A DNA stretch of 64,000 bases from Thermodesulfovibrionales bacterium. Its GTDB lineage: Bacteria > Nitrospirota > Thermodesulfovibrionia > Thermodesulfovibrionales > SM23-35. The position numbers and the translations under genes are program-made. How positions within the stretch are numbered: position 1 is the stretch's first letter; every line of letters begins with the position of its first letter. The DNA lies in NCBI GenBank assembly GCA_030019415.1, contig JASEEX010000003.1, forward strand, positions 6,583 to 70,582. The letters are read 5' to 3'. The notes below the pieces were generated by a model, which did no database searches, was not told the origin of the DNA, and was given only the letters and a program-made list of their open reading frames with translations. Below, one piece after another: positions 49,541 to 52,303 of this stretch.

Positions 49541-52303
49541 TTAACTTACTGTTAAAACTACTACCTCTATTTTAACCGCACATACCTTTAACTCCGGTAT
49601 CTTTGCAATGGGGTCAAGGGCGGTACCAGTAAGCACATTTGCTGCTGCCTCCTTAAAGTGAAAAGGTATGAAGACCATTCCCTTTGCTGGTCTATCCGAA
49701 ATTAGAGCCTTAATATTAATAGACCCCCTCCTTGATGAAACCTTTATTATCTTACCATCATTTATACCAAATTGCTTTGCATCATCGGGATGAATCTCGA
49801 TATAAGCCTCAGGTGATATTTTATTGATAGCATCAATCTTTCGTGTCATTGAACCTGTATGATACTGGAAAAGCTGCCTTCCTGTCGAGAGCAAAAATGG
49901 ATATTCGTTATCAGGTAATTCCTCTGATGGCCTGTATCTGGTGGTGCTAAATACAGCTTTACCTCTGGGGAACCCCCCTTTAAAGAGATAGGGCGTTCCA
50001 GGATGATCAAGTGTGGGACATGGCCACTGAAGACCCATCTTTGCTATCCTCCCATAGGTTATTCCCTCTATTGCTGGCCAGACCTTACCAGCTTCCTGAA
50101 ACACCTCCTCGATGAAGGCATGTTTCATCTTATACCCGAGTCTGTTTGCCAGTTCTATGATTATCCATGAATCCTCCTTTGCCTCCCCCGGCGGTTCCAC
50201 TGCCTTCCTCACCCTCTGCACCCTTCTCTCTGTATTTGTGAATGTTCCATCTTTCTCTGCAAAGCAGGCTGCAGGCAATACCACGTCCGCAAGCTCTGCT
50301 GTCTCAGTCATGAAGATATCCTGCACAGCAAGAAAATCTAACCTTTTTAATGCCTCTATTGTACGGTTTATATCTGGATCGCTTAAGACGGGGTTCTCAC
50401 CCATTATGTACATTGCCTTAAGATTTCCTTTAAGGGCTGCCTCAGCCATTTCTGGTGCTGTAAGTCCTATCTTATCCGAGAGTCTGACGCCCCATGCCTT
50501 CTCAAACTTTTGCTTTATATTTGGTATATTTACCTTCTGATAGCCGGGATAGAAATCAGGAAAGCACCCCATATCTGATGCACCCTGGACATTGTTCTGT
50601 CCCCTCAGTGGGTTGACTCCTGTGCTTTCTCTCCCGATGTTTCCTGTCATCAATGCTAATTTTGCTATGGCGAAAACATTTTCTGTCCCGTGGGTATGCT
50701 GTGTAATACCCATTGTGTAATAGATACCAGGCCTTACAGCATTTCCGTAAAGAATGGCCGCTCTTATAATGTATTCCTTAGGGACACCAGTAATTTTTTC
50801 TCCCATATCGGGTGTGTATTCATTGAGACCTTCCTTGAAAGATTCAAATCCCTCTGTCCATTCCTCTATGAATTTTTTGTCTGTCAGATCTTCTTTTACT
50901 ATTACATGCATCATGGATTTCAGAAGGGCAACGTCTGTCCCTGGCCTATGCTGAAGCCATATACCAGCAAACCTCACGAGGTCAATCCTTCTTGGGTCTG
51001 CAACAATGAGCTCCGCACCCCCTCTTACAGCCTTTTTTATCCTTAGACCGATTATCGGGTGGGTCTCTGTTGTATTTGAGCCGATGACAAAGATTACATC
51101 ATGGTTTCCAATCTCTGGTATAGAGTTCGTCATTGCACCTGAACCAAATACTGTGGCCAGACCGGCGAGCGTTGAGCTGTGGCAATACCTTACACAATGG
51201 TCAACATTATTTGTGCCAATTACAGCCCTCATGAATTTCTGGAATAGATAATTTTCCTCATTTGTGCATTTTGCAGAGGAAAGCCCTCCAATAGAGTCAG
51301 GGCCATATCTGTCTTTTATCTCTCTTAGCCTCTTTGCAACATAAACTAACGCCTCATCCCATGAGACCTCCCTAAAAAGTTGAGAGTTGAGAGTTGAGAG
51401 TTGAGAGTTGAGAGTCTTCTGACTTCTTCCGCCTCTGGCGGATGACTTCTGACTATTCTTTGGGACTATTCTTATAAGAGGTTTTGTGAGTCTGTCAGGA
51501 TGATTAATGAATCCATAACCGAATCTCCCTTTTGCACAGAGCCAGCCTTCATTGATCGTATCCTCTCTTGAGGAGACACGGATAACCTCATTTCGTCTTA
51601 CATGGAGTGTAAGGCTACAGCCGCATCCGCAGTAAGGGCATACGGTTTCAATTTCCTTTATATCTTTCTGTCTTCCCTTATGTGCCCACATCTTTCCCGT
51701 AAGAGCTCCTGTAGGGCATACTGCCACACACTGACCGCAGAACTCACAATTTAGGTCTTTTTCGTAAGGAGGGCAGATTCTTGTTTTAAATCCCCTATGA
51801 GCAAAATCAATTGCACCAACACCTTGAATCTCATCACATATCCGTACGCATTGCCCGCAGAGTATGCATTTTTCCATCTCCCTTTCGATAAAAGGATTAT
51901 TATCTTTTCTTGTATAAAACCTTCTTTCGCCTTCAAACCTGTTTTCCCTGATCCCATAAAAATATGCAAGTTCCTGAAGGGTGCAATCACCTGCCCTTTC
52001 GCAGACCATACAGTCATTTGGGTGGTCAGAGAGGAGGAGTTCAAGGGTCGTTTTCCTTAATTTTTCTATGTAAGGACTTGTTGTTATGACCTCCATCCCA
52101 TCACTTACAGGTGTTGTGCAGGCTGTAATAGGTCTTGCCATGCCTTTAATTTCCACTATACAGAGTCTGCATCCCCCATAAGGGGAGAGTTCAGAATGGT
52201 GGCATAGTGTAGGTATCGGAATATCAAGTTTTCTTGCAGCATCAAGAACTGTGGACAGTTTCCTTACAGTGACTTTCTTGCCATCTATTGTTAGAGTTAC
52301 CAT
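49541..52303 (-). CDS. fdhA: NAD-linked formate dehydrogenase alpha subunit (NuoG-like N-terminus plus molybdopterin domain), Cys-type
   Basis: An N-terminal 2Fe-2S region (CRLC), then a His(Cys)3 cluster and two 4Fe-4S motifs. MopB domain with VRYCHSSTLAGL (Cys, not Sec) and a C-terminal MoCo dinucleotide-binding domain. Confidence 0.9.
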   Translation of the reverse strand: MVTLTIDGKKVTVRKLSTVLDAARKLDIPIPTLCHHSELSPYGGCRLCIVEIKGMARPITACTTPVSDGMEVITTSPYIEKLRKTTLELLLSDHPNDCMVCERAGDCTLQELAYFYGIRENRFEGERRFYTRKDNNPFIEREMEKCILCGQCVRICDEIQGVGAIDFAHRGFKTRICPPYEKDLNCEFCGQCVAVCPTGALTGKMWAHKGRQKDIKEIETVCPYCGCGCSLTLHVRRNEVIRVSSREDTINEGWLCAKGRFGYGFINHPDRLTKPLIRIVPKNSQKSSARGGRSQKTLNSQLSTLNSQLFREVSWDEALVYVAKRLREIKDRYGPDSIGGLSSAKCTNEENYLFQKFMRAVIGTNNVDHCVRYCHSSTLAGLATVFGSGAMTNSIPEIGNHDVIFVIGSNTTETHPIIGLRIKKAVRGGAELIVADPRRIDLVRFAGIWLQHRPGTDVALLKSMMHVIVKEDLTDKKFIEEWTEGFESFKEGLNEYTPDMGEKITGVPKEYIIRAAILYGNAVRPGIYYTMGITQHTHGTENVFAIAKLALMTGNIGRESTGVNPLRGQNNVQGASDMGCFPDFYPGYQKVNIPNIKQKFEKAWGVRLSDKIGLTAPEMAEAALKGNLKAMYIMGENPVLSDPDINRTIEALKRLDFLAVQDIFMTETAELADVVLPAACFAEKDGTFTNTERRVQRVRKAVEPPGEAKEDSWIIIELANRLGYKMKHAFIEEVFQEAGKVWPAIEGITYGRIAKMGLQWPCPTLDHPGTPYLFKGGFPRGKAVFSTTRYRPSEELPDNEYPFLLSTGRQLFQYHTGSMTRKIDAINKISPEAYIEIHPDDAKQFGINDGKIIKVSSRRGSINIKALISDRPAKGMVFIPFHFKEAAANVLTGTALDPIAKIPELKVCAVKIEVVVLTVS
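51378..51461. repeat. In-frame heptamer array inside fdhA (~84 nt; AGTTGAG x5 then degenerate units)
   Basis: Five perfect AGTTGAG copies at 51378-51412, then AGTCTTC TGACTTC TTCCGCC TCTGGCG GATGACT TCTGACT… It encodes NSQKSSARGGRSQKTLNSQLSTLNSQL. The outer boundary is approximate. Confidence 0.8.

Follow-up and report, generated by a model that had tools for sequence, protein, structure and literature searches.

The 64-kb window analyzed here is a stretch of contig JASEEX010000003.1 (assembly GCA_030019415.1), for which NCBI names a Thermodesulfovibrionales/Nitrospirota metagenome-assembled genome (MAG) as the source. On its minus strand, at 49541..52303 (positions throughout are those of the window), it carries fdhA/fdsA, the gene for the alpha subunit of an NAD-linked-type formate dehydrogenase with a molybdenum or tungsten bis-pyranopterin guanine dinucleotide cofactor (Mo/W-bisPGD), within which arrays of tandem 7-nt units (heptamers) and a small palindrome are translated in frame. 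The gene, assigned from Pfam and PDB matches, is intact, and its 920-residue product is 100% identical to NCBI entry MDI6889534.1. FdhA contains the Pfam domains Fer2_4, NADH-G_4Fe-4S_3, Fer4_Nqo3, Molybdop_Fe4S4, Molybdopterin, and Molydop_binding, and its best PDB matches, 9wxb_B and 6tg9_A, are alpha subunits of NAD-dependent formate dehydrogenases (E ∼1e-228; 4e-228 for 6tg9_A). The iron-sulfur, molybdopterin, and MopB-binding domains, together with the catalytic Cys/His pair (C374/H375), agree with an FdsA/FdhF-type assignment, and all columns that are invariant among 50 homologues are kept in the protein, including C374, H375, and the cluster cysteines. The close relatives all come from Nitrospirota or Thermodesulfovibrionales MAGs, which bears out the impression in an earlier note on this DNA that the gene set does not look cyanobacterial.

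Read along the coding strand, the repetitive block in fdhA consists of a degenerate (AGAAGTC)4 array, which is split by a 16-nt palindrome, followed by a young, perfect (ACTCTCA)5 array; we refer to these as Array A and Array B, respectively. The 5' half of Array A (51444..51457, minus strand) reads GACTTCTGACTATT on the plus strand, comprises the plus-strand units GACTTCT GACTATT, and encodes NSQKS. The GC-rich palindrome (51428..51443), TCCGCC-TCT-GGCGGA(T), is translated as SARGG, its core CCGCCTCTGGCGG occupying 51429-51441 and its extended stem TCCGCC/GGCGGA 51428-51442. The 3' half of Array A (51416..51427, minus strand) reads CTTCTGACTTCT on the plus strand, directly after the AGTTGAG array, and its (AGAAGTC)-type coding units yield RSQK. 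Array B (51378..51415, minus strand) is AGTTGAG ×5.4 on the plus strand, with 100% identity and a Tandem Repeats Finder (TRF) score of 76; it is translated in all three frames as TLNSQLSTLNSQ and is stop-free in the used orientation only, because AGTTGAG includes TGA and its stop-free complement alone stands on the coding strand of fdhA. Sequence, TRF, and translation thus agree with the five AGTTGAG units, the degenerate heptamers, and the hairpin that the earlier note had described. Across the block the open reading frame (ORF) translates as ...PLIRIVPKNSQKSSARGGRSQKTLNSQLSTLNSQLFREVSWDEAL..., matching the peptide quoted earlier between the flanks, which in its protein context reads KPLIR-IVPKNSQKSSARGGRSQKTLNSQLSTLNSQL-FREVSWDEAL. 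The 27-residue peptide corresponds to FdhA residues 283-309, that is, to 51377-51457, so that the block measures 81 nt rather than the earlier estimate of about 84 nt. The variable loop as a whole, I279-L309 (93 nt; 51377..51469, minus strand), replaces the four-residue (12-nt) turn that most homologues have, a net gain of 27 codons (81 nt), and, from the translation, a tryptic peptide such as TLNSQLSTLNSQLFR would span it.

The components of this block recur elsewhere in the window. The 12-mer CTTCTGACTTCT is present exactly in pyrK (28260-71, minus strand) and in larC (39207-18), as had been noted, and with one mismatch allowed it finds 7 matches in the window versus 0.72 expected. The peptide SEVRSQK, a product of Array A's unit family, is found in the FdhA proteins of two relatives (P0004 and L081), as well as in LarC. 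The 16-mer palindrome occurs twice in the window versus 0.02 expected. At the RNA level, a 121-nt insert segment folded at −21.4 kcal/mol (z = +0.42), with nothing unusual beyond the 6-bp palindrome, and a promoter and terminator scan of 51000-52500 made no call at the array. Rfam searches of the window at gathering thresholds returned only three tRNAs and a fluoride riboswitch (crcB motif; 34296-34362, minus strand; 42.3 bits versus a gathering score of 34), all of them away from the fdhA array.

Alignments with the PDB chains break at FdhA residue 278 and resume at residues 308-310, while the PDB chain moves only from 315 to 320-322, which places ∼25-27 extra residues exactly at this point. 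An AlphaFold2 model built on a 50-sequence alignment (mean predicted local distance difference test score [pLDDT] 83.7; predicted template modeling score 0.83) gave pLDDT values below 50 for residues 286-304, with the 10-residue block 291-300 averaging 34. This segment sits between two confidently modeled strands, 276-278 (LIR) and 310-312, and the insert is consequently predicted to be a disordered expansion of a hairpin turn. The model thus points to a disordered extension of a β-hairpin turn at the entry of the molybdopterin domain, in which the arrays and the palindrome would encode a floppy surface loop.

To place the insert among its relatives, we used tblastn to find the two peptides that flank it in 160 related loci, drawn from genome and metagenome collections, and measured the gap between them. 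In 113 loci the site spans 12-18 nt, mostly exactly 12 nt, which encode a four-residue turn such as KNGK; the remaining 47 carry 45-156 nt, often 81-102 nt. The statement in the earlier note that homologues have only a few residues here holds for unrelated homologues, which have just the four-residue turn. All 160 loci have both flanks in one frame, with a gap that is a multiple of 3. In a crude neighbor-joining tree on 370 flanking residues, calculated without support values, the window falls in a 25-member clade (23 of the related loci, the sister genome described below, and the window itself), every one of which carries an insert. Inserts are sporadic in the other Nitrospirota subclades, and the outgroups all have the short turn, which indicates that the short turn is ancestral and that the site has held an insert from the base of the window's clade onward. 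The block is thus an insertion inasmuch as it is extra relative to unrelated homologues, but, given its presence in the whole clade, these comparisons indicate that it is no recent one-off event.

The inserts of the relatives share conserved edges, APKExS at the N terminus and S-L-F at the C terminus, between which the heptamer units vary. They include (i) KSEVRSQKSEV from (TCAGAAG)n in L081 and P0004; (ii) SKVKSQK from (TCAAAAG)n in P0012; (iii) SAVSSQQ from (TCAGCAG)n in P0009; (iv) ACGCGTN units in L010 and GAGTTCG units in L011; and (v) xAGTCAT followed by its inverted complement in L001. Many relatives' inserts additionally contain a palindrome made of a C-run and a G-run, translated as NPPxPPLxKGGxGG. 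Pure-heptamer translation explained at least 9 of 11 residues, in the best 11-residue stretch, for 13 of the 47 inserts, versus 0 of 300 control FdhA stretches. The regions flanking fdhA in the wider clade hold 0.53 period-7 arrays per 10 kb, versus 0.29 at other loci and 2.3 in the window, a modest excess suggesting that the strong one may be confined to the window's genus. Three other Nitrospirota FdhA loci (L019, L038, and L043) have 3-4 period-8 arrays each and few of period 7, and the FdhA insert of L038 contains (CACCCATT)3; lineages may differ in the repeat period they favor.

The earlier proposal that array lengths within coding sequences are all multiples of 21 did not survive measurement. 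The block measures 80-81 nt in FdhA and 66 nt in pyrK, where 24 nt are not heptameric; LarC alone of the three has a block of 42 nt, and array limits are fuzzy. Nor was there an enrichment among relatives, where the net FdhA insert is divisible by 21 in 9 of 47 cases versus the 6.7 expected for multiples of 3. The frame is kept by the whole composite rather than by each array.

The closest available comparison is the sister genome GCA_040753955.1, whose FdhA (P0121, 927 residues) is the sole other member of the 90%-identity cluster of the window's protein. The two proteins share 93% identity and differ almost exclusively within the insert. We compared a stitched 37-kb sister contig that is syntenic with 17.7-57.5 kb of the window, in which most genes are 91-98% identical in DNA (94-97% for the genes flanking fdhA); alignment is lost precisely at the insert of FdhA and in those spacers that bear arrays. 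Where the insert meets the common flank ACTTTT... on its 3' side, an (ACTCTCA)5 array in the window corresponds to (ACTCCTC)4 in the sister, which is read as DSSLLTPHSSL; the unit of Array B has been replaced throughout the array. The palindrome site also differs, with CCGCCAGAGGCGG in the window versus CCTCCTCGAGGGGGAGG in the sister genome, and the spacer upstream of fdhA is 81 nt with two arrays in the window versus 9 nt without an array in the sister. In the aligned coding sequences, the few indels of at least 3 nt are concentrated at the LarC and PyrK arrays. The sister's 37 kb hold eight period-7 arrays, with none of periods 5, 6, 8, 10, or 11, and TAACTGA TAACTGA stands in tandem directly before the ribosome-binding site and ATG of fhs, the gene for formate-tetrahydrofolate ligase. 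As a separate observation, fhs itself (47117-48886, minus strand) is only 73% identical to the sister in DNA, although the genes on either side are 94-97% identical; the pattern resembles an allelic replacement or a recombination tract with array-bearing spacers as its limits.

Like fdhA, the unrelated enzyme genes pyrK and larC are intact. They carry arrays in frame, as the earlier note had recognized. The pyrK array (28252..28317, minus strand) reads TTTCTAA CTTCTGA [24-nt insert] CTTCTCA CTTCTGA CTTCTTA CTTAATT, in which the GC-rich 24-nt piece is CGGCTCGACTGAGCTCGCCGAAGT (28280-28303); the sister pyrK has a perfect (CTTCTCA)5 without this piece. Among 50 Nitrospirota PyrK homologues, a single heptamer explained on average 68% of the 11-12 residues at the site, versus 42% for random segments. 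The peptide variants match their units, with TSHFSLL corresponding to (ACTTCTC)n, NSQFSIL to (AATTCTC)n, and TRHSSLV to (ACTCGTC)n, so that a C-to-A change made once per unit alters T to N, H to Q, and L to I jointly. The larC array (39189..39230, minus strand) comprises six AGTNAGA-type units in 42 nt and encodes QSTVRSQKLEVRRW, at a site where PDB LarC is only 5 residues shorter. Nitrospirota LarC homologues have SEVRSQK, SKLKVQ, or AKSKEQR here, sometimes with a nested NPPxPPLxKGGxGG, and the unit, AGT[T/C]AGA in the window, is AGTT[C/A]AA in the sister; the two LarC proteins are only 81% identical. Both arrays are shared, as heptamer-derived peptides, with Nitrospirota homologues of 60-88% identity. 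Together with the sister comparison, these patterns indicate that the PyrK and LarC arrays are old, positionally stable, and evolving in concert. In addition, Nitrospirota LarC proteins (P0133-P0237) range from 377 to 517 residues, of which the heptamer-site insert explains only a part, implying at least one further hypervariable LarC region.

The arrays within genes also carry unit variants that avoid stop codons. In the window, larC has AGTTAGA units, but AGTCAGA where the frame would give AGT TAG; in the sister, it has AGTTAAA units, but AGTTCAA at units 1 and 4, which lie 21 nt apart, avoiding AGT TAA. Likewise, the pyrK unit that is read as TTC TNA in the window is CTTCTCA, and not the neighboring CTTCTGA. 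Although array lengths show no bias toward multiples of 21, a selection signal with a 21-nt period does exist, in the form of stop-avoiding unit variants placed three units apart.

The fdhA arrays belong to a genome-wide period-7 population that lies mostly in short spacers near stop and start codons. Scanning the 64 kb at fixed offsets for runs whose self-identity was 85% or more, we found 15 arrays of period 7 and 0-2 each for the other periods from 4 to 13, whereas 50 first-order Markov shuffles gave a mean of 0.22 period-7 arrays and a maximum of 2. TRF independently lists arrays at 19638, 20027, 45737, 48911, 49458, 52368, and 62251, and every spacer array named in the earlier note was recovered. 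Their generic features are those of long heptanucleotide simple sequence repeats (SSRs) and of the short tandemly repeated repetitive (STRR) sequences: head-to-tail units beyond chance that are dispersed and preferentially non-coding. The window is ∼91% coding (∼9% non-coding), yet gene cores hold only 3 of 18 arrays. A typical spacer array abuts the upstream stop codon and ends 15-30 nt before the next start codon; six stop 15-31 nt before the start codon of prs, a Band_7 gene, fhs, a gene for a cyclic-nucleotide (cNMP)-binding protein, fdhA, and rpmF, and four overlap the 3' end of the upstream gene. Units on the mRNA strand are A/T-rich, often with AACT or ACTGA, and exact single TAACTGA units are present within the mixed arrays upstream of fhs and of the cNMP-binding gene.

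Individual spacers illustrate these positions. The 81-nt nuoF-fdhA spacer contains two arrays (52319..52395, minus strand; TRF and period scan), one stopping 15 nt short of the fdhA start codon and the other, upstream of it, extending over the stop codon of the NuoF-like gene. The arrays upstream of fhs (48918..48977, minus strand) comprise (TTATAAG)3 and, on the mRNA strand, TAACTAA TAACTGA CAACTAA, and the array upstream of the cNMP-binding protein gene (49458..49488, minus strand) has TAACTGA on the mRNA strand. Arrays of period 14 and period 7 lie between the NfeD and Band_7 genes (45685..45766, minus strand), and those between convergent genes at 62251..62333 overlap the 3' end of an ORF (61410..62273). 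A cluster found by TRF and the period scan (19636..20058) surrounds tRNA-Gln and lies upstream of prs. The tRNA-Gln gene itself (19912-19986, minus strand) is embedded in heptamer arrays and small hairpins, the sister genome has related arrays on the other side of it, and a 74-residue ORF at 19799-20023 is spurious.

In our best reading, the fdhA block is a translated microsatellite region that evolves fast within a permissive FdhA loop and is seen here in its current state. We consider it probable that the arrays as a group are slippage-driven microsatellites of the STRR/long-SSR type, which are tolerated in permissive loops and filtered by selection on frame and stop codons. As 7 and 3 have no common factor, each unit is read in all three frames, and the translation product is a low-complexity peptide with a 7-residue period. 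The anatomy of the arrays, their turnover, their unit-level concerted change, and the signatures of selection are visible in the alignments, and from these we infer slippage: arrays would expand, contract, and homogenize by slipped-strand mispairing or unequal exchange, and, inside genes, purifying selection would pass only total lengths that are divisible by 3 and lack an in-frame stop. The FdhA segment would then be a tolerated passenger of a lineage-specific repeat-generating tendency, and neither a catalytic element nor an on/off switch. Several observations weigh against this account. No pair of alleles differing solely in copy number was seen among the compared sequences, and the closest relative, at 93% FdhA identity, differs in unit sequence as well as in copy number. 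Retention of the insert in 25 of 25 clade members, often at ∼90 nt, could reflect selection for the loop, and the perfect homogeneity of the DNA, with peptides conserved across the order in PyrK, could reflect selection at the DNA or RNA level. Moreover, slippage does not simply explain the exchange of whole segments for others of similar length, as at the FdhA palindrome and in an RsmD-like gene.

A rival explanation is a selected, disordered linker, whose docking, solubility, or regulatory role in an FdsABG-like complex would be tuned by the repeats. None of the 25 clade members reverts to the four-residue turn, many lengths cluster at 81-102 nt, and the APKExS and S-L-F edges are conserved; there is also a precedent in Borgs, where tandem repeats create intrinsically disordered regions that are under selection (PMC9879509). 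As in the amino-acid tandem repeats of Borgs, fast-evolving repeats here make new disordered regions at the same place in homologues, whereas Borg ORF repeats have units that are always divisible by three (PMC9879509), and a 7-nt unit read in all three frames does not fall in that class. Sequence, composition, and length (45-156 nt) are, however, unconstrained between close relatives, repeats of these families are also present in unrelated enzymes and in spacers, and closely related FdhA subclades function with a four-residue turn, all of which leave this explanation doubtful. A somewhat different idea, which we also regard as rather unlikely, is that arrays and nested palindromes are not made by generic slippage but are produced or targeted by a dedicated, sequence-aware process that cyanobacteria and Beggiatoaceae also have, and are maintained at the DNA or RNA level as a regulatory layer. 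Its possible signs are the ACT/AGT core of the units, TAACTGA before start codons, and palindromes landing in arrays. If true, each heptamer might, for example, bind one molecule of a Csp- or S1-like single-strand-binding protein by which translation is tuned, the fdhA, pyrK, and larC copies being kept homogeneous for that purpose, and post-transcriptional regulation would reach into coding sequences.

A perfect array within a coding sequence, with a unit length not divisible by 3, could also be a contingency locus, the five-copy array acting as a frameshift switch for FdhA (and similarly for PyrK and LarC). The precedent is neuO of Escherichia coli K1, in which a heptanucleotide repeat inside the coding sequence gives full-length protein only at copy numbers divisible by 3 (PMC13001214), and the arrays described here resemble it in their 7-nt in-gene repeat, their heptad-periodic peptide, and a frame kept in three-unit steps. 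Unlike neuO, an accessory, phage-borne gene with 3-53 copies at its 5' end that is mostly phase-OFF (65.6%; PMC13001214), the present arrays are short (at most 5-6 units), mid-gene, and always in frame, and their carriers are core metabolic genes, including that of the pyrimidine-biosynthesis subunit PyrK. None of the 160 FdhA loci, including the 47 with inserts, is out of frame, which argues against phase variation, and the listed PyrK and LarC homologues are full length; a neuO-type switch is very unlikely. We give as little credence to the recent insertion of a discrete mobile element, such as a miniature transposable unit made of array and hairpin, into fdhA, pyrK, and larC, a reading that the earlier note had implied. 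Such an element could account for the 16-mer TCCGCCTCTGGCGGAT being present twice in the window, for the 24-nt GC-rich segment in the window's pyrK array that is absent from the sister, and for the palindromes of C- and G-runs nested in the arrays of many relatives and in priA of the window. The arrays, however, are positionally ancient, being common to the clade or order; the three genes have only the heptamer unit family in common, with no terminal inverted repeats, consistent target duplications, or full-length element, so that mobility might fit the small palindromes but not the whole block. Misassembly or a decaying pseudogene is the least credible explanation and can hardly be entertained: the source is a MAG, and repeats can confuse assemblers, but the arrays, at 43 nt or less, are shorter than a read, inserts of this kind recur at this site in independent assemblies from other samples, and the ORF is intact with all invariant residues. 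The evidence as a whole favors tolerated, slippage-driven microsatellites.

Heptanucleotide arrays as a kind are already known, as are translated heptanucleotide repeats (neuO). Heterocystous cyanobacteria reportedly carry STRR heptanucleotide sequences, said to have been described by Mazel and colleagues in 1990. STRR1 is CCCCAGT, and STRR3 is CAACAGT. The present arrays resemble the cyanobacterial ones in being short, tandem, and mostly non-coding, with several unit families per genome distributed over many loci; many units have an ACT/AGT core, and CAACAGT occurs literally in the window's larC array. They differ in their Nitrospirota host, in their more A/T- and pyrimidine-rich units, and in that several are translated in conserved enzymes. 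With a non-cyanobacterial host, differing units, and an isolated CAACAGT in larC only, they are not STRR in the strict sense; the earlier suggestion of STRR-like arrays in a non-cyanobacterial genome is nonetheless supported. STRR heptanucleotides have also been mentioned for Calothrix PCC 7601 (PMC4692102).

A closer parallel in position is provided by the TAACTGA direct repeats known from marine Beggiatoaceae, cyanobacteria, and some Bacteroidetes (MacGregor 2015, PMC4679880), a study that lists no Nitrospirota among the TAACTGA-bearing lineages and makes no mention of the phylum. Those repeats occur in 2-6 copies just upstream of start codons, some over the upstream stop, and within ORFs in the stop-free orientation only (PMC4679880). 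The window's arrays follow the same rules of position and orientation, those in coding sequences are stop-free in the frames used, and exact units are present in the spacers of fhs and of the cNMP-binding gene, with a tandem pair in the sister. Unlike these repeats, the FdhA array unit is not TAACTGA; whereas BOGUAY has one dominant heptamer, with related ones being rare, many unit types coexist here, and whereas its ORF copies lie at the termini of mostly hypothetical proteins (PMC4679880), those in FdhA, PyrK, and LarC are mid-protein. More generally, heptanucleotides are summarized as the most abundant class of long SSRs in many prokaryotes, with polymerase slippage proposed as their origin (Mrazek 2007, per PMC4679880). 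Heptanucleotide SSRs are further described as overrepresented between co-oriented ORFs, no more than 50 bp from gene ends, and as depleted in coding sequences (PMC4692102), and GGGNATC heptamer repeats are known from Xanthomonas and Nostoc (PMC4692102). The favored period of 7 and the positions of the window's arrays fit this picture, although they differ from GGGNATC repeats in not being G-rich and in having no potential to form G-quadruplexes. That arrays within coding sequences persist and evolve in concert, as documented here, is not described in either account (PMC4679880, PMC4692102).

In the literature searched for Thermodesulfovibrionales/Nitrospirota, we found no prior description of heptamer arrays in that lineage, so that Thermodesulfovibrionales apparently is a new lineage for a kind of array known mainly from cyanobacteria. 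Also new are the long persistence of heptamer arrays at fixed hot spots in conserved enzymes, the replacement of whole units, and the stop-avoiding variants with a 21-nt period. The system offers a clean natural example of a non-triplet microsatellite that is long-lived inside essential enzymes and read in three frames, where one base change per unit makes three coordinated amino-acid changes, policed by selection on frame and stop codons. In practical terms, the loops point to places in FdhA, PyrK, and LarC that permit insertions; they make orthologues look more divergent than they otherwise would, as in LarC, which is 81% identical between genomes that are otherwise ∼95% identical; and they could serve as strain markers in metagenomes.

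Small GC-rich palindromes behave like insertions at several sites, namely the 24-nt piece in pyrK, the 16-nt element in fdhA and in a methyltransferase gene, and the C/G-run elements in FdhA, LarC, and PriA of this lineage. The second exact copy of the 16-mer TCCGCCTCTGGCGGAT lies at 14357-14372, in an ORF (13471..14598, minus strand) for a DUF185/NDUFAF7-like methyltransferase, where its translation is NPPEAD. The loop in which it lies is 3-6 residues shorter in the PDB homologues 4f3n and 1zkd, and it has the same AAGTCA flank as the fdhA copy, with the loop flipped. A search for this palindrome as a multi-copy mobile element yielded, among 163 loci, the two window copies and just one more, an unrelated intergenic one in the sister, and we rejected that assignment. 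In priA (22576..24567, plus strand), a C-run/G-run palindrome, CCCCCCTTACCCCCCTTCAATTCCCCCCTTACCAAGGGGGG, at 22956-22996 is translated in frame as KIPPYPPSIPPLPRG; it is of the same kind as the NPPxPPLxKGGxGG inserts in FdhA and LarC of relatives, and small indels relative to the sister genome adjoin it.

Further differences from the sister genome were seen at other sites. The sister pyrK-pyrD spacer (90 nt) contains a perfect (AAAAGTC)5.5 at stitched positions 26999-27041, and that of the window is ∼35 nt with no array. The gene for an RsmD-like methyltransferase (56387-56983, plus strand) has, at the sister locus (L161, 1189-1220), a (CGTTACG)4 array within the coding sequence that encodes SLRVTRYALQE; the same place in the window holds unrelated sequence of nearly equal length, and the unit family of the sister array is the ACGCGTN family also seen in the FdhA insert of L010. 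Lastly, hairpins of the form CCCCGCACC...GGTGCGGGG vary by presence and absence between the two genomes, with copies at 41903-41921 in the window and at 10796-10991 and 15312-15367 of the sister locus L161. The window copy is flanked by a direct repeat, TGCGGGGTCT, as if the complement of the adjacent sequence had been copied.

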